64,000 bases of DNA from the NCBI GenBank assembly GCA_051531975.1, contig JAOPTT010000003.1:64001-128000 (forward strand), given 5' to 3'. The DNA comes from Spirochaetaceae bacterium. GTDB taxonomy: Bacteria; Spirochaetota; Spirochaetia; DSM-2461. Below are positions 1 to 15,882 of the stretch, in pieces (position 1 is the first letter of the stretch; every line of letters begins with the position of its first letter). The notes beneath the pieces are model-generated. The model was not told the origin of the DNA, did not search any database, and saw nothing but the letters and a program-made list of their open reading frames with translations. The position numbers and the translations under genes were made by a program.

Positions 1-581
1 TTACCAAAGGTAAGAGAGAGAATAACTTTTTAGTGGCTCTAGGGGAAGCGAGATCTGTAAATATTAGTGACAAAGGTTCTAAAGGTTTAGCTACCGGTCT
101 TGGAATGGTTATTGATGGGAAAGTACTATTAGGTGATAATTTCTCTGCAGGGGAATTTAAAAGTTTTTTATGGAAAGGATCACAATTTTCACAATACTCA
201 ATATCAGATGACGATGCTTTTGGTTTATTAGAAAATAGAGAGAATACACTAATTGTAATAGAAGAACTGGTAAAACAATTAGCCCTATATGTAAATAGTT
301 TTAACTTTACAAAAGTTATTTTTGCAGGAATATTTAACGACTATAAAATGGATATTAAAAGAATACTAACAACAGAGATTAAAACCAATTGGGGATATTC
401 AAATACTCCAGAGGTACAAATAGAATTTACAACTTTTGGTGATTACGACGTATCCTATGGGGCCGCAGGTATGGTAGTAGAAAGATTTTTTACTACACCA
501 GATATTACTACAGCAGAGGATAAAAAAAGCCTAAAAGGAATAGATCTATTTAGTTCAATGAATTTCGCCGCTCATGAATAG
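1..581 (+). CDS. ROK family transcriptional regulator/sugar kinase, C-terminal part (5' truncated by window)
   Basis: Frame open from window start; GLGMVIDGKVLLGDNFSAGEF ROK motif and terminal YGAA. Confidence 0.8.
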   Translation, partial: TKGKRENNFLVALGEARSVNISDKGSKGLATGLGMVIDGKVLLGDNFSAGEFKSFLWKGSQFSQYSISDDDAFGLLENRENTLIVIEELVKQLALYVNSFNFTKVIFAGIFNDYKMDIKRILTTEIKTNWGYSNTPEVQIEFTTFGDYDVSYGAAGMVVERFFTTPDITTAEDKKSLKGIDLFSSMNFAAHE

Positions 582-2052
582 AGTGTCTAGTTATAATTTT
601 ACGTCCATTATCCGGTCTATTATGGCTAATATTACCAATAATCTGGGAAATACAGTCATATAAATCCAGCTGAACTATGGGCTTAATTAAATAAGCACTA
701 AAACCAGCATTCTCTAATCGAAGGGCATCTCCCCTACTATTAACTGATGTCAAAAGTACTAATGACAAACCACTTAATGCAACGTTTTCTTTTATCTTTT
801 TACATATTTCAAGTTCAATATTACTTTGAACTTTTTTATCAATAAGTATAATATTATATGGTACTGATTCTTTATAAGAGTCCAATATAACGTTAACAAT
901 ATCTTCAGAAAAAGTTGAAAAGTTATGCCTTACATCCCATTTAGATAGTATTGCACCAATAACATTACCACTTGAGATACTATCCCCTATACATAAAATA
1001 TTTGCATCGGATAGATCTCCAACATTAAATGACGAGCGCCTTCGATCACTCTTTTTAAGTGGGATTTTAAATATAAATGCGGTACCTCCCCCTTCAAGAT
1101 CAGTTACAGCCATTTGCCCATCCATAAGTTCCACTAACTGTTTTGAAATTGGCAGACCAAGGCCTATACCACTAAGTTCACGACGAATACTACTTTCATC
1201 ATGAGAAAAACTATCAAAAATATCAATTTTATCATTAGGGATACCAACACCTGTATCTGAAACAGAAAATATAAAATTAGATGATTTATCTGAATCTTCT
1301 TCCATAAGACAAGAGATTGTAATCCCACCCTTTTCTGTAAATTTTATTGCATTATCTGTTAAGTTTGACAAAATCTGTCTTATTCGACCTGGATCTCCAA
1401 TAAGAAATTCAGGGATATCAGAATCAACAATACAATTTAGATCTAACCCTTTATCATGGGCTCTATAAGAGAAGGATGAGACAAAATCATCTAACATAAA
1501 TTGCAAGTTAAATTTTATATCTTCTAACTCTAATTTGCCATCTTCAATTTTTGAGTAGTCAAACATATCTTCTATTATAGATAGTAAAGTTCCACTACTA
1601 TTTTTTAAAATTCTAATGTACTCCATCTGTTTATCATCTAAATCTGTCTCTGCTAAAAGTTCAGTCATTCCAACTATGCCATTCATAGGAGTTCTGATCT
1701 CATGGGATATATTTGATAAAAAGTCACTTTTAATTCGGGTTGAATTTTCAGCTTTTCTTGCCATTAAATCGGTTAATTCAATATTGCTTTCAAGTTCTAT
1801 GGCATTATTCTCTTGGATTAGAAGTTGTTTTTTAATTATTCGAAGTGTAGGAATAAAAGTTAAATAAATTGACAAAAAAACTATTACTAACAAAAGCATA
1901 TTCATTATTAAAGAGAACTGAACAGCACCTATATGTTTAGATAAAATTCTTGAGACTACATTAACAACAATGATGCTTAAAAATATTATAACACCACCAA
2001 TTATTGCTCTACTTTTTAATTCATTATATATATTATCTTTTTTAAATATCAC
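550..2052 (-). CDS. Membrane hybrid sensor histidine kinase (2 TM, HisKA, HATPase_c, receiver)
   Basis: FLSNISHEIRTPMNG H-box, NLTDNAIKFT, DTGVGI, GLGLPIS; C-terminal REC with AYLIKP. Confidence 0.9.
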   Translation of the reverse strand: MIFKKDNIYNELKSRAIIGGVIIFLSIIVVNVVSRILSKHIGAVQFSLIMNMLLLVIVFLSIYLTFIPTLRIIKKQLLIQENNAIELESNIELTDLMARKAENSTRIKSDFLSNISHEIRTPMNGIVGMTELLAETDLDDKQMEYIRILKNSSGTLLSIIEDMFDYSKIEDGKLELEDIKFNLQFMLDDFVSSFSYRAHDKGLDLNCIVDSDIPEFLIGDPGRIRQILSNLTDNAIKFTEKGGITISCLMEEDSDKSSNFIFSVSDTGVGIPNDKIDIFDSFSHDESSIRRELSGIGLGLPISKQLVELMDGQMAVTDLEGGGTAFIFKIPLKKSDRRRSSFNVGDLSDANILCIGDSISSGNVIGAILSKWDVRHNFSTFSEDIVNVILDSYKESVPYNIILIDKKVQSNIELEICKKIKENVALSGLSLVLLTSVNSRGDALRLENAGFSAYLIKPIVQLDLYDCISQIIGNISHNRPDNGRKIITRHSIHERRNSLN

Positions 2053-8002: not shown

Positions 8003-8959
8003 TTATGCTCTAGATTTTTTATCTTTATTCATAGAATCGATTCCTACAACTACAAGGATAATTAATCCTTTTACTAAGTACTGAATGTAAACTTGAACAC
8101 CTAGTAGGTTAAACATATTCCCAATAATCGAAAGAATTAAAACACCAACAAGAGTACCAACAACACTACCCTCTCCACCGGAGACACTAGTTCCACCAAT
8201 AACAGTTGCTGCTATTGCATCAAGTTCATATCCCTGGCCTGCTAATGGAGTTGCAGAGTTTAGTCTGGAGGCATAAACAATACCTGCCATTGCAGCCATC
8301 CCTCCTCCTATTACAAATGTCATTATCTGGTAATAATCAACAGACACCCCAGATAATCTAGTGGCTTCTTTGTTTCCACCAACTGCACATGAATAACGTC
8401 CTAAAGGTGTCTTGTTTAGAGTAAATTGCCACACTACAACCATAAATACAAGAAGTATTATAGGAAATGGAATTGGACCTATATAACCTGAACCGATAAA
8501 TCTAAAACTATCTGAATATCCAGTTATAGGGTATCCTCCAGTATAAAGATAGGTTAATCCACGGACGATTGTCATTGTTCCTAATGTAGCAATTATTGAT
8601 ACTATTTTAATTTTAGCAGCCAATATACCATTTGCAAGACCAACAAAAGAACCAACAGCCAAAGCTATAACAACTGCAAATCCCCATGGCATTACCCCTT
8701 GTAGACCTAATACAACAGCAGCAGATAGAGCAAGTGTTGATCCAACTGAGATATCAAATCCTCCACCAATTATTACATAGGTAGTACCGATTGCCATAAT
8801 CCCAATAATAGAACTCTGTCTTAATATATTTAAAATATTTCTTGACGTTAAAAAGTTAGGAGTTATTATGGAAATAACCAAACAAATAACACTAAATATT
8901 ATCATTATGCCGTATTTCTTAAAAATATCCCGTATTTTAGTGTTTACAATATTAGTCAT
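8003..8959 (-). CDS. Monosaccharide ABC transporter permease (RbsC-like)
   Basis: GGFDISVGS, GGNKEATRLSGV, YELDAIAATVIGGTS. Confidence 0.92.
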   Translation of the reverse strand: MTNIVNTKIRDIFKKYGIMIIFSVICLVISIITPNFLTSRNILNILRQSSIIGIMAIGTTYVIIGGGFDISVGSTLALSAAVVLGLQGVMPWGFAVVIALAVGSFVGLANGILAAKIKIVSIIATLGTMTIVRGLTYLYTGGYPITGYSDSFRFIGSGYIGPIPFPIILLVFMVVVWQFTLNKTPLGRYSCAVGGNKEATRLSGVSVDYYQIMTFVIGGGMAAMAGIVYASRLNSATPLAGQGYELDAIAATVIGGTSVSGGEGSVVGTLVGVLILSIIGNMFNLLGVQVYIQYLVKGLIILVVVGIDSMNKDKKSRA

Positions 8960-10451
8960 TAATTTCTCCTTCTAATAATTTATTATAGATCTCTTTTTCT
9001 GAAACCCCTCGGTTACATATTTCATGGATATGACCTTTTTTCATTATCATTATTCTGTCTGAAATACCAACAATCTCAGGTACTTCTGTAGAGATAAATA
9101 TTATGGTCTTCCCTTTATCAGAAAGGTCCTGTACGATTTTATATATTGCATCCTTTGCTCCAACATCAACACCTCTAGTTGGCTCATCCATAATAATTAT
9201 ATCAGGGGCAGCTTCCAACCATTTCCCAATTATCACTTTCTGCTGGTTCCCACCACTAAGGGTTTTAACATCCTGATAAATTGAATTAATCTTAACATTC
9301 ATTTTATTTATTATTGATTTGGTTGATAGTTTCTCAGATTCAAAGGAGATCAAACCTTTAGTAACATGTTTTTCTAACGAGGCAAGTGTACAATTTGTTA
9401 CGACAGAATGTTCCTGTATTAGTCCTACTTTTTTCCGATCTTCAGGAAGCAGACCAATACCTAGCTTTTTACCTTTTTTAGGACTGGAGATTATAACTTT
9501 TTTATTGTTTATATAAATGTTTCCAGAGGTTGCTCTATCCCCACCAAACAGAACCATAGCTAGTTCAGTTTTTCCAGCACCGATAACCCCGGTAATACCT
9601 AAGACCTCACCCTTATAAACAGAGAAAGAGACGTTTTTTACTTTATTAAAAAAAGATAAGTTCTCAACTCTCAGAATCTCAGAATCAAAGCTTTTATTAC
9701 TTTTTTTCACACAACTACTCTGAAAGTCCTCTCCTACCATCATTTTTATTATTTTTTGCTCTGTAACGTCTTGAATATCTACTGTACCAACAAACTTCCC
9801 ATCTTTTAAAACAGTAGCTCGATCTGCTATCTCAAATACCTCTGATAAATAGTGAGTAATATATATTATTGTGACATTTTTTTTTCTAAGTTCAGCAATT
9901 ATAGAGAAAAGGTATTCAGTCTCTTTGTCTGTTAATGCATCTGTAGGTTCATCCATTATAATCAGGTTTGAATTCCTGGATATACACTTTAAGATCTCAA
10001 CTAGTTTCTTTTCTGCTGCGGTTAAGTTATATACTATGATTTCAGGATCGAAGTAAAACCCCATTTTTTCACATAATATATCATATCTTTCTCGGTTTTT
10101 TTTATTATTAAAAATTCCAAATTTTGATTTCTCTTCAACACCAAGGAATACATTATCTATTATTGATAGCTCTTCTATTAGACTTGTTTCTTGAAATATA
10201 ACTCCAATACCATTGTTGTAGGCTTGTGCTGGTGTCTGGTAACTACTCTTTTTTCCATTTAATAAAATAGTTCCATTGTCTCTATGGTATACCCCAGTTA
10301 TTATCTTTATAAGTGTCGACTTTCCTGCACCGTTCTCACCTAACAAAGCATGGATTTCTCCACTATTTATATCGAAGGATATATCATCTAAAACTTTTAC
10401 TCCAAAAAAGGACTTATTAATGTTCTTAATCTGTAAAACTTTCTCGGTCAT
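8952..10451 (-). CDS. Monosaccharide ABC transporter ATP-binding protein (RbsA-like, two NBDs)
   Basis: GENGAGKST, MDEPT, YITH, LSGGNQQKV, DEPTRGVDVGAK. Confidence 0.93.
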   Translation of the reverse strand: MTEKVLQIKNINKSFFGVKVLDDISFDINSGEIHALLGENGAGKSTLIKIITGVYHRDNGTILLNGKKSSYQTPAQAYNNGIGVIFQETSLIEELSIIDNVFLGVEEKSKFGIFNNKKNRERYDILCEKMGFYFDPEIIVYNLTAAEKKLVEILKCISRNSNLIIMDEPTDALTDKETEYLFSIIAELRKKNVTIIYITHYLSEVFEIADRATVLKDGKFVGTVDIQDVTEQKIIKMMVGEDFQSSCVKKSNKSFDSEILRVENLSFFNKVKNVSFSVYKGEVLGITGVIGAGKTELAMVLFGGDRATSGNIYINNKKVIISSPKKGKKLGIGLLPEDRKKVGLIQEHSVVTNCTLASLEKHVTKGLISFESEKLSTKSIINKMNVKINSIYQDVKTLSGGNQQKVIIGKWLEAAPDIIIMDEPTRGVDVGAKDAIYKIVQDLSDKGKTIIFISTEVPEIVGISDRIMIMKKGHIHEICNRGVSEKEIYNKLLEGEIND

Positions 10452-11671
10452 ATTAATTTCCTGCCTAATACCTTAAAGTGGTTATCAGGAATATGAATAA
10501 TGTTCCATGAAGCGACAACTCCTAAAACTTCTTCTTGTAAAGAGTCTATATAACCATCTAACATACCTTCCGATATTTTAGTAGAGAAGTAGGGACAATT
10601 TACAATTTCTAATCCACTATAAATAGGTACAGAATTATTAACCTGTTTTTGTGCTATCTTAAGATCTACTAATGCATTTTTTGGATCAACACCATTTTTT
10701 TCAATTTCAATTAAATTGTTTGGTAATTCAAAACCAAAATGTCTTTGCAAAAATCTAAGAAAGGCACTTTCTGAAACCTTAGGTGCAAGATTTCTAAAAC
10801 CATTAGTTAAACATATAATTTCCAGTGGGAATGCTGCTGGACCCATGGCGTAACAGTAAGACATGGTTTTAATCCAATCACATTGTGTAGAAAGTAGTGA
10901 ATAATCCTGTCCTGTAAAAAATGATAAACCTGGTGATAAAAGATCCAAACCAACTATTTTATCATTATTAAATCCATATTTATTATAAAGACTAACAGCC
11001 TTATATATCTGATTTCTCTTATATTGAAAAAAGGAACTAAAATCCTCAAATATTTTTTCAAAATTATTAAAACTATTTAATTTTTTATCATCTAATGTTG
11101 AAATCTTTTTATAGAAATTTGAAACCTTACTCATTTCAGATTTTAAGTCCATATTTTGTTCTAGACAGTAAGATGAATAGGATGTAAAAAAAGTAGAAAA
11201 AATTGACTCAAAACCATTAGCTGGAGAGGTATATCTAACTCTATCCAGGAAAACACCGTCATATTCATACTCTTCCATAGAAGATTTAAATTGGTTGAAA
11301 TTATTATCATTTATTAGATTATCAGTAGGATCTACAAATAAAAAACCTTCCTCACCCTTCCCAATTTTGTCCCATATACCTGATAGGTCTAAATCCTTGT
11401 GATAGGGTACTTGTGCCATGTTCTTTGTAGTTATATCTATATGGTTCATATCTGCAAAAACAGGATGCCAAAGATATGTTTCAATTTTGTTTTCTTTACA
11501 GAAATTTATAATTTCTTTTGTGTCATCTGAAGGATTTACATCCCAGATCATCAGCTTTTTCAGATCAAGATAGCCTTTTGTCCGGGCGATCTTATCTTTA
11601 ATGTCAGCCAAAGAGAAGGATTCCTTCTCTTCGACTCCAAGATAAAGCTGAGTACTATAATTAATACTCAT
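10448..11671 (-). CDS. Hypothetical protein, probable glycoside-hydrolase-like TIM barrel
   Basis: YDGVFLDRVRY and GQDYSLLSTQCDWIKTMSY resemble GH-like barrel strands; inside the sugar ABC operon. Confidence 0.5.
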   Translation of the reverse strand: MSINYSTQLYLGVEEKESFSLADIKDKIARTKGYLDLKKLMIWDVNPSDDTKEIINFCKENKIETYLWHPVFADMNHIDITTKNMAQVPYHKDLDLSGIWDKIGKGEEGFLFVDPTDNLINDNNFNQFKSSMEEYEYDGVFLDRVRYTSPANGFESIFSTFFTSYSSYCLEQNMDLKSEMSKVSNFYKKISTLDDKKLNSFNNFEKIFEDFSSFFQYKRNQIYKAVSLYNKYGFNNDKIVGLDLLSPGLSFFTGQDYSLLSTQCDWIKTMSYCYAMGPAAFPLEIICLTNGFRNLAPKVSESAFLRFLQRHFGFELPNNLIEIEKNGVDPKNALVDLKIAQKQVNNSVPIYSGLEIVNCPYFSTKISEGMLDGYIDSLQEEVLGVVASWNIIHIPDNHFKVLGRKLI

Positions 11672-11692: not shown

Positions 11693-12649
11693 TTAAAGTT
11701 CTGCTACTACACTATCAACGTTTTCTATACTTACAATTTCTGGAATAATTGAAATAATTTTATCCACTTTGTCTCCATTTAAGACTTTAGAAGCTGTTTG
11801 AACTGCAATGTAACCCATACTTGAAATTGATGCATTTGAAGTCATGTCAACTTTTCCTTCTTTGATATAAGGAATTAGCTCTTTAGAAAATTCTAAGCCC
11901 GTAATATTAACTTTGTAATCCAATCCGGCTTCTTCAACTGCTTCTGCTGCTGCAGATGCTGCGGAATACCACTGACAACTGATTAAGTCGATCTTTTCAC
12001 CTTTTTGTAAACTTGCCTCAACTGCACCTAGTGCGCCCTCTTTTGTCCAACCTGGAATACTTTGGCTATAAATAATGTTCCAGTTACTATGTTTTGCAAC
12101 AACTTCTTTAAAAGCTTTTGATCTCAATCTTTGTGGAGCTGTTCCAGCTGTTCCTTCAATTAATACAATATTAGAAGGTTCATTTCCTAATAGAGATTCA
12201 GCCATTTCACCCATTAAAAATCCTAGATATTCATCGTTAATTCCAATGAAACTTTCAACACCTTCAACATCTCCAGTTGGGTCTTCACCTAGTATGTTTG
12301 TAAATGTAATAAGAGGAATTCCAGCGTCCTGACAAAGCTCTATTGATGGTAACAGTGCTATATTGTCAGCTGAGCATAAAAGAATAACATCAACACCTCT
12401 GGCAACAAAGTTCTCCATCTGAGTTAACTGCTTACCAGCATCCCATTCCGCATCAGAATATATAAGATCTAATCCGAACTCTTTAGCTGCTTCATCCATT
12501 CCTTTACGTTGGATCATAAAGAACTCAACACTTCCAGGAAACAATACCGCGACTTGTGGGTTCCCACTTTTACTTTCATTTGTTCCACTTGCAAAAACGG
12601 TTGAAACTAATGTTACTAACAACAACAATGCTAAAATTTTCTTAGTCAT
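11693..12649 (-). CDS. Sugar ABC transporter substrate-binding protein (RbsB-like)
   Basis: Signal peptide ending FASGTNE; DAEWDAGKQ, GIPLITF and EGTAGT PBP type-1 motifs. Confidence 0.9.
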   Translation of the reverse strand: MTKKILALLLLVTLVSTVFASGTNESKSGNPQVAVLFPGSVEFFMIQRKGMDEAAKEFGLDLIYSDAEWDAGKQLTQMENFVARGVDVILLCSADNIALLPSIELCQDAGIPLITFTNILGEDPTGDVEGVESFIGINDEYLGFLMGEMAESLLGNEPSNIVLIEGTAGTAPQRLRSKAFKEVVAKHSNWNIIYSQSIPGWTKEGALGAVEASLQKGEKIDLISCQWYSAASAAAEAVEEAGLDYKVNITGLEFSKELIPYIKEGKVDMTSNASISSMGYIAVQTASKVLNGDKVDKIISIIPEIVSIENVDSVVAEL

Positions 12650-12682
12650 AAAAACTCCTATAGTATTTTTACAATTACATAC

Positions 12683-12697
12683 GCAATACCCGTGCCA
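12683..12697 (-). promoter_or_regulatory. Sigma54 (-24/-12) promoter of the ABC operon
   Basis: Minus strand TGGCACG-GGTA-TTGC matches the TGGCACG-N4-TTGC consensus, 34 bp upstream of the SBP start. Confidence 0.88.
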
Positions 12698-12748: not shown

Positions 12749-12795
12749 GGGTAATAAATTGCACATTTATTACACCTCGTGCACGTTTTACACAT
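12749..12795. promoter_or_regulatory. Putative enhancer (UAS) for the NtrC-family activator
   Basis: Palindrome gtaataaat-tgcac-atttattac and adjacent gtgcacgttttacaca, about 50-100 bp upstream of the sigma54 promoter; could also act as the kinase terminator. Confidence 0.5.
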
Positions 12796-14584
12796 CCAAA
12801 GCTTCAGGAATAGAGACATAAAAAATAGTTTTATCTTCTATCTCTTTAAATCCAATCTCTCCTCTATGGTCTTCAACAATCTGTTTTGATATAGCTAGAC
12901 CTAGTCCTGTATTTTTTTTTGTAACCTTAGTAGTAAAAAATGGATCAAATATTTTGGATTTTTTATCTAGGTTAACTCCAGATCCATTATCTTCAACGCT
13001 CAAAATTACACTGTTATTCTTTTTTTTAATCTCTACATCTATTATGCCTTCGTCTAAAACTGCTTCGATGCTGTTAATTACAAGATTTATAATTACCTGT
13101 TTTAATTTACTAGAATTTCCATTTACAAGATATTCTTGGTTATCATCGATGTTTAGGTTCAAAGATATATCCTTCGTTTTAATTTTATATTCCAGCAGAA
13201 CCAGGGTTTCTAATAATATCTCTTTTAGGTCTATAGTAGTCTTACCACTTTGCATCTTTGAAAATGATAATAAACTGCCTGTAATTTCTTCAATCCTCGA
13301 TAACTCTTTTTCTATCTTCTGAATTTTTTCCTGACTATTAATATCAGTAATTTTCATTTTTAGAAGTTCTGTATAATTTGATATAATTGCCAAAGGATTA
13401 TTTATTTCGTGGACAACTCCTGCTGCAAGTTCAGCTAAAGAGAAAACTTTGTCTGCACCAATTTTATACTCCTGCATATGACATTTTTCTGTTACATCTT
13501 CTAACATAATTATAGAATCATCTGCTTCATTATCATTTGCTAGTGGAAATATAACGATGTCCATAAATTTACCATTTATGAGTTCCACCGAGGATAAACT
13601 AAGATGAAAATTCTTTGTAAGTGATGAAAGAATAAGTTCTTTGGAATTTTTATCTATAACAAATCCTTCCTGTAATCGTTCTAGAAAGTTTTCTCCACTG
13701 TTATCCATATCTAGAATATCTATTGCACTTCGGTTTATTACTGAAACTCTTTTTTGGTTATTAAAAACAATTATTCCCTCTTTTAGCTCATCAATTATAG
13801 ATTTAGAATATCTTTTTTCTAAAAATGAGTCCCAATCATTTCCTGCTGTTAATAATTTTGCATAGGAGAGTTCAACAAGTTTACTTTTGTCTACATTTTT
13901 TATATCCTCGGTTCCTTGCCTTCTTCCATCTTTTAAAATTGTAATTCTGTCTGCAAAATCAAAATCTTCATTAATGTTAGAAAAAATGTAGATTATACTT
14001 TTCCCCTTATTTTTAAGTTTTCCTAACAGCGTGTGTAATATTTTTAACTCTTCTGTTTTGAATCTTGATGACACCTCATCTAATATAAGAACATCAGGAT
14101 TATGAATCAGTGCTTTAGCAATCTCAATAAAATTTCTATTAAAAGGAGAGAGTTTTTTTACTGGAATGTTTAGATTAAAGTCTACATTAAATTCAGACAT
14201 TAACTGCTTCAGGTTTTTTAACATTTCTGCTCTTTTTAAAGTTTTAAAAATATTAGTTATAAATCTGCCAGAATATACGTTTTCATAAGAATTAAAATCG
14301 AGGATTAGATTGCTATATTGGTAAATTACTGAAATATTCTGATTTAGAGAATCTTTGGGTCTTAAGAACTCAACAACATTTCCATCTAATAAAATTTTTC
14401 CTTTATATTTTTTACACGCTCCTGTTAATATATTAACAACTGAGGATTTCCCACAAAAATGTTCTCCGTATAAGGCGTGAATCTCTCCCTCTTTCAGATC
14501 AAAGGAGAAATTCTGTAGGGCAAATACATTCTCTTCTCTATAAACAGAGATATTTTTTAGAACTAATTTATTTGCTCCCTTCAC
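12788..14584 (-). CDS. Soluble sensor kinase: N-terminal ABC-ATPase-like domain + PAS + HisKA + HATPase_c
   Basis: GEIHALYGEHFCGKS, EIAKAL, VLILDE (RbsA-like NBD); SIIDELKEGIIVFN (PAS); AAGVVHEINNPL, DNGSG, IFDPFFTTK, TGLGLAIS; no TM segment. Confidence 0.88.
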   Translation of the reverse strand: MKGANKLVLKNISVYREENVFALQNFSFDLKEGEIHALYGEHFCGKSSVVNILTGACKKYKGKILLDGNVVEFLRPKDSLNQNISVIYQYSNLILDFNSYENVYSGRFITNIFKTLKRAEMLKNLKQLMSEFNVDFNLNIPVKKLSPFNRNFIEIAKALIHNPDVLILDEVSSRFKTEELKILHTLLGKLKNKGKSIIYIFSNINEDFDFADRITILKDGRRQGTEDIKNVDKSKLVELSYAKLLTAGNDWDSFLEKRYSKSIIDELKEGIIVFNNQKRVSVINRSAIDILDMDNSGENFLERLQEGFVIDKNSKELILSSLTKNFHLSLSSVELINGKFMDIVIFPLANDNEADDSIIMLEDVTEKCHMQEYKIGADKVFSLAELAAGVVHEINNPLAIISNYTELLKMKITDINSQEKIQKIEKELSRIEEITGSLLSFSKMQSGKTTIDLKEILLETLVLLEYKIKTKDISLNLNIDDNQEYLVNGNSSKLKQVIINLVINSIEAVLDEGIIDVEIKKKNNSVILSVEDNGSGVNLDKKSKIFDPFFTTKVTKKNTGLGLAISKQIVEDHRGEIGFKEIEDKTIFYVSIPEALDV

Positions 14585-15882
14585 ATCATGTCCAGTTTCT
14601 TCATTTTGTTATATAAAGTTTTTCTATGTATTTTTAATATATCAGCCGCTTTTTGTTTTGAACCATCAGCCTCTTTTAATGCGTTAATAATTATCACTTT
14701 ACTTAAGGTATTTAGTAAAATTTCTGGGCTATTTTCTGTTACTTTTTCGATCATTGAATACTGAGAGGATAAATTACCCATATTAATATTTTCTGTTTTA
14801 CAAAAAATTACTGCTCGTTCCATACAATTTTTTAATTCTCTAATATTCCCAGGCCAAGAGTGTTTAATGAGTTGATCTATTACGTTCTGTTCTACCCCGT
14901 GGATTACTTTCCCATACTGAGTACAGAATTTGATTCTAAAAAAATCTATTAAATCTACAATATCTTCTTTTCTCTCTCTAAGAGGAGGAAGTTCTAATGT
15001 TATTACGGATAATCGATAATAGAGGTCTTCTCTAAAAAGTCCACTTTCTATTAACTTCTGGAAGTTTTTATTAGTTGCTACAACAAAACGGATATCAGTT
15101 TTTATAACCTTTGTACCACCAAGCCGTGTAAACTCCTGTTCCTGTAGCACTCTTAAAATTTTTGCTTGAGTAGTTAGAGACATGTCTGCTATTTCATCTA
15201 AAAAGAGTGTTCCTGTATGGGCAAGTTCAAACTTTCCTTGGTACTGTCTATCAGCACCTGTAAATGCTCCTTTTTCGTGTCCAAATAGTTCACTTTCTAA
15301 TAGAGACTCAGATAAGGCAGCACTATTAACTTTTATAAACGGCTTATCTTTTCTTGAACTTTCACTATGGATTAAACCTGCAATAAGTTCTTTACCTGTT
15401 CCACTCTCCCCAGTAATAATTACAGATGCATTACTTTTAGCTGCAATTTCCAGTGTCTCATAGACAGCTATCATTCTTCTGTTTCGACTATGTCTTTCAG
15501 GTTTAAATGTACTGCTTGTTGATACTAAGTTCCCATATTTTTCTATATTACTTAATAATTTTGGAAGTTTTATTGGTTTGGATAAAAAATCAATGGCTCC
15601 ATATTTCATGGCATCTACTGCTTTATCTACTGTAGGATATCCTGTCATAACAATTACATGGATCTCCGGGTTAGCTGTCTTAATCTCTTTTAAAAGATTT
15701 AACCCACCTTTCCCAGGCATTTGAATATCCGTAATAACAAATTGTGGAGGATTTTTGAGTATCTGCTCTAAGGCCAGAATAGGATCGGTATTGTATTTCA
15801 CGTGAAAATTCATCTCAATTAAAATTTCAGATAGTGATAGACACATCTCCTGTTCATCATCAACAATAAATATAGTATTCAT
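14581..15882 (-). CDS. Sigma54-dependent NtrC/AtoC-family response regulator
   Basis: REC (IVDDE, TDIQMP, KP); GESGTGKE, ESELFGHEKGAFTGA, WPGNIRELKN; Fis HTH. Confidence 0.95.
   Translation of the reverse strand: MNTIFIVDDEQEMCLSLSEILIEMNFHVKYNTDPILALEQILKNPPQFVITDIQMPGKGGLNLLKEIKTANPEIHVIVMTGYPTVDKAVDAMKYGAIDFLSKPIKLPKLLSNIEKYGNLVSTSSTFKPERHSRNRRMIAVYETLEIAAKSNASVIITGESGTGKELIAGLIHSESSRKDKPFIKVNSAALSESLLESELFGHEKGAFTGADRQYQGKFELAHTGTLFLDEIADMSLTTQAKILRVLQEQEFTRLGGTKVIKTDIRFVVATNKNFQKLIESGLFREDLYYRLSVITLELPPLRERKEDIVDLIDFFRIKFCTQYGKVIHGVEQNVIDQLIKHSWPGNIRELKNCMERAVIFCKTENINMGNLSSQYSMIEKVTENSPEILLNTLSKVIIINALKEADGSKQKAADILKIHRKTLYNKMKKLDMM

Follow-up and report, generated by a model that had tools for sequence, protein, structure and literature searches.

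What could the ATPase domain of a sugar importer be doing at the front of a soluble histidine kinase? This question is raised by a gene on the minus strand (12788..14584) of a 64,000-nucleotide stretch of a Spirochaetaceae genome (GenBank assembly GCA_051531975.1, contig JAOPTT010000003.1, positions 64,001 to 128,000), which is referred to as the window throughout. Its single open reading frame (ORF) starts with GTG and encodes a sensor kinase of 598 amino acids (aa), in which a nucleotide-binding domain (NBD) of the ATP-binding cassette (ABC) type precedes a PAS, a HisKA, and a HATPase_c domain. We propose that this kinase belongs to a transporter-coupled two-component system, in which the NBD plugs into the permease of the neighbouring importer and relays the state of the binding protein, or of transport, to the kinase core. 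We give this proposal a probability of roughly 0.5.

A histidine kinase with an ABC domain as input

The initial annotation of this DNA, made from the sequence alone, had described one 598-aa ORF devoid of transmembrane segments with the domain order NBD, PAS, HisKA, and HATPase, and both points are borne out. The highest 19-residue Kyte-Doolittle mean of the kinase is 1.59, as compared to 2.44 for the adjacent permease, and Pfam, NCBIfam, and AlphaFold2 agree on the domain order. Pfam places ABC_tran at residues 23-171 (E 1.2e-21; 78.2 bits versus a cut-off of 25), HisKA at residues 383-447 (52.6 bits, cut-off 26.9), HATPase_c at residues 490-594 (75.2 bits, cut-off 26.4), and a weak PAS_7 match at residues 264-294. 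By NCBIfam, residues 7-248 resemble the first half of the tandem CUT2 ATPases AraG, YtfR, MglA, AlsA, XylG, and RbsA (E 1e-38 to 1e-45) and residues 257-584 align with AtoS (E 6e-57), with scores below every curated cut-off of that collection (154 versus 689 bits for AraG, 193 versus 646 for AtoS, 133 versus 479 for ZraS). Residues 257-594 also match the sequence of the soluble PAS kinase ThkA (3a0r, E 5e-36). The AlphaFold2 model, which is based on a 49-sequence alignment (mean predicted local distance difference test (pLDDT) score 82.7, predicted template modelling score 0.47), divides the protein into the NBD (residues 1-230, pLDDT about 90), linker helices (233-265), a PAS fold (266-363), the dimerisation and histidine phosphotransfer (DHp) domain (365-442), and the catalytic (CA) domain (449-594). 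The best Foldseek matches of this model are PAS/LOV-DHp-CA kinases, which cover the C-terminal half, while the N-terminal third finds ABC NBDs such as LptB and LivG-type domains.

In window coordinates, all on the minus strand, the NBD (residues 1-232) occupies 13889..14584 and is of the type found in the first half (NBD1) of CUT2 ATPases according to Pfam, NCBIfam, phylogeny, and AlphaFold2. It is followed by the helical linker at 13790..13888 (AlphaFold2, low confidence), the PAS fold at 13496..13789 (Pfam, ThkA alignment, AlphaFold2, and Foldseek), the DHp/HisKA domain with the H-box HEINNPL (His392) at 13244..13492, and the catalytic HATPase_c domain at 12803..13240 (both by Pfam, alignment, and AlphaFold2). 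His392, Asn500, Asn504, Gly534, and Gly560-Leu-Gly-Leu563 are identical in all 49 aligned family members, and the family shows no variation in the N, G1, and G2 boxes. With its H-box histidine and these three boxes the protein is a HisKA-class sensor histidine kinase, and its input modules are one CUT2 NBD1-type ABC domain and one PAS domain, and nothing else. Elsewhere in the window, a second histidine kinase seems to be encoded by a 500-aa ORF (550-2052, minus strand), which shares about 30% identity with a portion of the fused kinase.

Misassembly or a gene-calling artefact can be rejected as the origin of the fusion, given the many fused homologues and a contig of a second assembly that runs across the domain junction. 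Among the 120 best clusters at 90% identity, 93 (the window's own counted) carry ABC_tran together with HisKA; they are mostly about 600 aa long and 29-76% identical to the window kinase, and the few source names among them read 'ATP-binding cassette domain-containing protein' (Spirochaetia) or 'AtoS'. When 1.84 billion representatives at 50% identity were searched with a profile, all 150 proteins among the matches listed had the fused architecture (E <= 2e-117); 141 of these are 585-646 aa long and the NBD is full length in every one. As these 150 proteins saturate the search, the family comprises at least 150 clusters at 50% identity. The contig of the second assembly, which derives from a sequencing run that is possibly the source sample, covers 12928-14700 with zero differences and thereby bridges the junction between NBD and PAS. 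Contigs of that assembly break at a word of about 31 nt in the CA domain of the kinase (12925-12957), which recurs in a different contig, suggesting that the kinase gene has a short repeat in common with some other gene of the sample; the repeat is irrelevant to the fusion.

The analysis covered the spirochaete family, which is patchy across the sampled phylum: full-length matches occur in 14 of 401 genomes, counting that of the window, and in 11 of 153 genera. The window genome has three copies. A scan of genome contigs was dominated by kinase-only matches from Acidobacteriota and contained the fusion at 12 of 80 loci. Longer fusions, for example of permease, NBD, and kinase, were absent among 7999 candidates of 1048-2990 aa at E <= 1e-30, which is weak evidence; shorter or split forms were not searched. 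In one protein of the 50%-identity set (P0127, 851 aa) the NBD is followed by two HisKA stretches, which suggests that the middle part of this protein was duplicated. In some members the gene is broken into two ORFs or interrupted by a single internal stop (L011 2646-4453; G048 and G281), which could reflect decay or assembly errors in metagenome-assembled genomes. No publication on an ABC-NBD-kinase fusion was found in the literature searched (PMC12316311 and PMC6978683 among it), subscription journals not covered; the family is unstudied.

The NBD had initially been called a degenerate pseudo-ATPase, which is an overstatement. Among 49 aligned members, hand-picked from the 93 fused clusters, Gly40, Gly45, and Lys46 of Walker A and Asp169 of Walker B are kept in 49/49, the Q-loop Gln89 in 47/49, and the catalytic Glu170 in 46/49. 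The window kinase has Gln89, the three Walker A residues in GEHFCGKSS (residues 40-48; 14441..14467) as well as Asp169 and Glu170 in the Walker B and D-loop stretch VLILDEVSSRF (residues 165-175; 14060..14092). What stands of the claim is the loss of the middle Walker A glycine, of the glycine pair of the signature, and of the D-loop proline, of which the first two had been missed. At the middle glycine of GxxGxGK[ST] the window kinase has Phe, most members have Arg43 (38/49), and Gly occurs in 4/49; the general P-loop pattern GxxxxGK[ST] is satisfied by the window sequence GEHFCGKS. The signature reads LSPFN instead of LSGGQ, and across the family it consists of Leu, Ser or Thr, three variable positions, and then Gln in 38/49, with both glycines absent from all members. 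Loss of the D-loop proline, noted from the outset, extends across the family. Loss of the H-loop switch histidine had been noted too and is true for the window kinase, where alignment places Ser202 (13979..13981) at this position, but it is not a family trait: His is kept in 30/49 and Ser found in 12/49, and the loss is lineage-specific. All strings quoted in the initial annotation are present, namely GEHFCGKS (residues 40-47), LILDE (166-170), DEVSS, IIYIFSN, and HEINNPL in the kinase and IIYITHY and DEPT in the adjacent ATPase.

In a quick IQ-TREE phylogeny of 62 kinase NBDs with 38 NBD1 and 38 NBD2 sequences of CUT2 ATPases, the kinase NBDs form one clade beside the NBD1 sequences (Shimodaira-Hasegawa-like approximate likelihood ratio test, 97). 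This clade lies at a distance of 0.29 from NBD1, versus a branch length of 1.29 for NBD2, which indicates a single origin of the fusion, from an NBD1-type domain. As the three paralogues of the window genome fall into different subclades, they are old. The sharpest switches relative to the 38 NBD1 sequences are Asn42 to His, a residue found in 45/49 kinase NBDs, and the losses of Pro171, Gln151, and Lys14. In the adjacent ATPase the NBD1 signature, LTAAEKK, also lacks both glycines, whereas that of NBD2 reads LSGGNQQK; the degeneracy of the kinase signature was thus inherited. Judged by these residues, the NBD has probably retained nucleotide binding, and fast hydrolysis by an NBD homodimer is unlikely.

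Linkage to a CUT2 importer and a sigma-54 promoter

The kinase gene is the second of six genes on the minus strand, in the order regulator, kinase, binding protein, 407-aa protein, ATPase, and permease. The regulator (14581..15882; 433 aa) is of the NtrC type, with REC, sigma-54 AAA+, AAA lid, and HTH_8 domains by Pfam and NCBIfam, and is not an equivalog of AtoC (382 versus 714 bits); nor do kinase and regulator qualify as equivalogs of NtrB/NtrC or ZraS/ZraR. Its stop and the start of the kinase gene overlap by 4 nt (ATGTGA), as initially reported, and the two genes are translationally coupled. The kinase gene is separated by 138 nt from that of a periplasmic sugar-binding protein (Peripla_BP_4; 11693..12649; 318 aa) with a signal peptide, and the importer is completed by a full tandem-NBD CUT2 ATPase of the RbsA/AraG-like type (8952..10451; 499 aa) and a CUT2 permease (BPD_transp_2; 8003..8959; 318 aa), all three assigned by Pfam and NCBIfam. 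The 407-aa protein (10448..11671) has no Pfam match; the Atlas cluster nearest to it (score 0.98) bears the name 'Glycosyl hydrolase-like 10 domain-containing protein'. At about 28% identity, homologues occupy the same slot at loci L004 and L084 only (3 matches among all locus ORFs). This GHL10-like protein may process the imported sugar.

The operon had been described as RbsBAC-like and sigma-54-promoted. The promoter is present, a -24/-12 element (TGGCACGGGTATTGCG; 12682..12697, minus strand) about 33 nt before the ATG of the binding-protein gene, but with the 407-aa protein encoded second the operon is not a plain RbsBAC. An inverted repeat with 9-bp arms (GTAATAAAT-N5-ATTTATTAC; 12751..12773) lies in AT-rich DNA about 55-75 nt upstream of the -24 element, and we infer a candidate activator-binding site. 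Sigma-54 itself is encoded in the window genome (rpoN). The REC/AAA+/HTH_8 regulator, the -24/-12 promoter, and rpoN together make this a sigma-54 system of the NtrC family. Between the kinase gene and the importer operon the minus strand showed no terminator-like site, and read-through could therefore provide a basal level of operon expression.

This arrangement recurs throughout the family. We examined 15 loci from genomes and 80 from metagenomes (43 of the 80 with the fusion) and scored 55 family genes. Each of the 55 is immediately preceded by an NtrC-type gene, identified by script in 51 cases and visible in the other four, where the ORF caller had produced artefacts. Genes for a CUT2 binding protein, ATPase, or permease are located within 6.5 kb of 44 of the 55; the 11 others are on contigs that end about 1.5 kb or less from ntrC. 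A complete tandem ATPase is encoded wherever the locus DNA reaches. The commonest layout is divergent; the window, L083-L085, and a small number of others are co-directional. In the 643,533 bp of 53 loci we counted 22 instances of the strict pattern TGGCA[CT]-N5-TTGC, of which 19 adjoin the beginning of a CUT2 gene, which in 18 cases encodes a binding protein. Counted by locus, the strict pattern is present in 16 of 37 loci with a visible binding-protein gene, and L081 has a version with one mismatch. The kinase gene is thus genetically linked to an importer, as in Bce-like and Pst-like systems. One apparent exception, L109, was rejected as a locus without a CUT2 permease, as its CUT2 operon runs off the contig end and the adjacent ABC genes belong to an unrelated Opp-type system.

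The window genome encodes three paralogous regulator-kinase sets, each beside its own CUT2 operon. The other two, L081 (G000:C9:274000-293000) and L082 (G000:C9:350000-369000), are both divergent from their operons. The operon at L081 continues with a chemoreceptor gene and a gene of the enolase superfamily and is flanked by an AraC-type regulator, and that at L082 includes two permease genes. In a spirochaete metagenome-assembled genome, two regulator-kinase pairs stand back to back (L005 4950-11800), each facing its own CUT2 operon with a strict sigma-54 promoter. At L132 (1996-4533, plus strand), and likewise at L133, L138, and L157, single long ORFs of about 830-848 aa comprise a complete tandem CUT2 ATPase and a BPD_transp_2 permease, an assignment confirmed by Pfam for L132, although CUT2 subunits are usually separate. 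Between the window and L084, identity is 73% for the permease, 58% for the binding protein, 47% for the regulator, 46% for the ATPase, 39% for the kinase, and 28% for the 407-aa protein. Shuffling of the transporter relative to the kinase pair, considered for the window versus L004 and L084, was dropped; the whole six-gene cluster is orthologous and its genes have evolved at unequal rates.

A proposed route from permease to kinase, and its rivals

How could an importer speak to such a kinase? In the mechanism that we propose, a kinase dimer would take the position of the tandem-NBD ATPase on the permease dimer, its two NBDs contacting the cytoplasmic coupling loops via their Q-loop grooves. 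Arrival of a sugar-loaded binding protein at the permease would promote ATP-dependent closure of both NBDs, a movement that the helical linker and then the PAS domain would pass on to the DHp/CA core. Phosphorylation of the activator by the kinase would follow, and the sigma-54 promoter of the importer operon would open. The ATP sites would each consist of a retained Walker A and a signature from which both glycines are missing, and a pair of NBDs with such sites is therefore expected to be a slow switch and not a motor. In a more specific form, which is tentative, two NBD-kinase chains would replace the ATPase on some permease dimers and turn these into dedicated receptors, with closure serving as a signal instead of a power stroke and with one matching importer for each of the three paralogues.

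Docking of the NBD on the permease had been suggested from the start, as had a pairing of the NBD with RbsA, for which we found no support. For docking, the permease (47-row alignment) was modelled with residues 1-245 of the kinase in three runs and with three control proteins. The complex reached interaction prediction scores from aligned errors (ipSAE) of 0.65, 0.67, and 0.65, versus 0.00 for the best control, and passes a mark that 116 of 157 solved complexes reach, as do 2 of 215 mismatched pairs. At least 95% of the contacts are common to the runs, and the partner has a pLDDT of at least 80. In the modelled interface, residues 183-206 and 262-263 of the permease face NBD residues 54, 56, 75-80, 88-116, and 157, which form the Q-loop groove; permease residues 183-206 are the conserved cytoplasmic loop GRxxYAxGGNxEAAxLSG. 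The character of the groove residues P76, Y88, I94, L97, E101, G106, and R107 is retained. A search for solved homologues of the permease gave none at E <= 1e-5. As the controls were unrelated proteins and not other NBDs, and as ABC architecture is well known, the docking pass measures likeness to ABC transporters in general and not binding. At the 23 interface positions, the kinase NBD is nearer to NBD1 of the ATPase at its own locus than to that of other loci (+0.135 BLOSUM units per position, p = 0.036); no preference of this kind is seen at the remaining 203 NBD positions (+0.006, p = 0.39).

Several observations weigh against the proposed coupling. The docking pass may reflect the general likeness of any pair of ABC NBD and permease. 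Conservation at the modelled interface does not exceed that at other positions, in the kinase NBD or in the permease family, a result that leaves the conservation test powerless. The same-locus trend, weak in itself, weakens once near-duplicates are removed (18 loci; p = 0.076 for NBD1, 0.18 for NBD2), and the four tests were uncorrected. Correlation of distance matrices (mirror-tree), for which 23 complete loci of 52 kinase gene sets were available, ties NBD, kinase core, and regulator tightly together (rho 0.84-0.90) and gives 0.29 for kinase NBD and permease; this test is uninformative, as true partners, ATPase and permease, merely reach 0.34-0.41. Every locus encodes a complete tandem-NBD ATPase, so that the permease needs no second NBD partner. 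Finally, the PAS domain could sense a cytoplasmic ligand on its own.

This last point leads to a purely cytoplasmic explanation, in which the PAS domain acts as receptor for the imported sugar or one of its metabolites, whereas the NBD stays off the membrane and gates the kinase by ATP/ADP-dependent dimerisation or as an energy-charge switch. A PAS fold between NBD and DHp, the match of residues 257-594 to soluble ThkA, the kept nucleotide-binding residues, the complete ATPase at every locus, and the lack of resolved co-evolution with the permease would all fit such a sensor. We nevertheless regard it as rather unlikely, because a generic ATP sensor leaves unexplained why the kinase is linked exclusively to CUT2 importers and why its NBD is of the CUT2 NBD1 type; the hydrophobic groove residues I94, L97, and L116 would, moreover, have been kept in a domain that is free in solution, and the docking model passes.

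Information could also flow in the reverse or in both directions if the NBD does bind the transporter, with the kinase competing with or replacing the ATPase to throttle or drive uptake, either as post-translational control or as a bifunctional motor-sensor similar to CbrA or KdpD. The model uses the very site expected for the ATPase, Glu170 and the H-loop histidine are kept in 46/49 and 30/49 members, and PMC7096432 and PMC11018627 describe bifunctional fused transporter-kinases and a kinase that controls its own pump post-translationally. Yet a signature without both glycines in all members gives the kinase homodimer two degenerate ATP sites, a true ATPase is always encoded alongside, and the window kinase lacks the switch histidine, which makes control of uptake distinctly improbable. 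Least of all do we expect the NBD to be a decayed relic of an old fusion in a kinase that is regulated otherwise. The replaced residues, that is, the middle Walker A glycine, the D-loop proline, Gln151 of the signature, and in the window kinase the H-loop histidine, would be in line with decay; a relic would, however, hardly be full length in all 150 representatives listed, hold the Walker A Gly/Gly/Lys and the Walker B Asp invariant, acquire conserved residues of its own such as His42 (45/49), and be modelled with a confidence of about 90 over the whole domain.

Known transporter-kinase systems and implications

Known sensing complexes of transporters and kinases (Bce, Pst/PhoU/PhoR, and DctA/DcuS) join separate proteins. 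Flux sensing by BceAB-BceS of Firmicutes, as described in bioRxiv 10.1101/2020.02.28.969956 and PMC6978683, involves a histidine kinase that needs an ABC transporter for its signal and controls the genes of that transporter. The window kinase would likewise depend on an ABC transporter and control transporter genes. BceS is, however, a separate membrane kinase that contacts an exporter without covalent link, whereas the window kinase is soluble, has its NBD built in, and is combined with an importer and a sigma-54 activator; the partner regulator of BceS is of the OmpR type. The PAS domain of PhoR takes part in phosphate signalling. In PstSCAB-PhoU-PhoR, according to PMC9239213 and PMC6978683, a kinase without direct sensing of the substrate learns the state of an ABC importer through a relay. 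This relay passes via the separate PhoU to a membrane-anchored kinase, whereas NBD and PAS kinase are one polypeptide in the window, and no PhoU-like gene was seen in the kinase-family loci examined.

Covalent joining of a transporter module to a sensor kinase has a parallel in CbrA and CrbS, for which PMC7096432 and PMC5715377 describe an SLC5 transporter domain fused to a histidine kinase. Their module is the membrane domain of a secondary transporter, whereas that of the window kinase is a soluble ABC motor domain in need of a separately encoded permease. In the maltose system of E. coli the ATPase subunit of a sugar ABC importer, MalK, reports the state of the transporter to the transcription machinery by sequestering the activator MalT via its C-terminal regulatory domain, and is neither a kinase nor a fusion. 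The nearest sequence relative of kinase residues 7-248 is the first NBD of the CUT2 (TC 3.A.1.2) ATPases RbsA, AraG, MglA, XylG, and YtfR, from which the kinase differs by a single instead of a tandem NBD, by the fusion to a kinase, by His in place of Asn42, and by the loss of the middle Walker A glycine and the D-loop proline. ThkA (3a0r), YF1 (4gcz), and AtoS/AtoC-type systems are alike in the PAS kinase or in the REC-AAA+-HTH_8 partner, and none has an ABC NBD.

In the Bce, Pst/PhoU/PhoR, and DctA/DcuS complexes it is hard to see by which route the conformational state of the transporter reaches the kinase. The system in the window would link an ABC motor domain to a kinase core in one polypeptide, with one sigma-54 promoter as readout. 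If docking is true, it would offer a compact model of how NBD closure is turned into a signal, and external sugar would be sensed without a membrane kinase. If the NBD is merely an ATP-dependent dimerisation module, it would still extend the known input domains of histidine kinases by a new kind. As the family is modular, with three paralogues in the same genome and at least 150 clusters, it may also supply sugar-specific switches.

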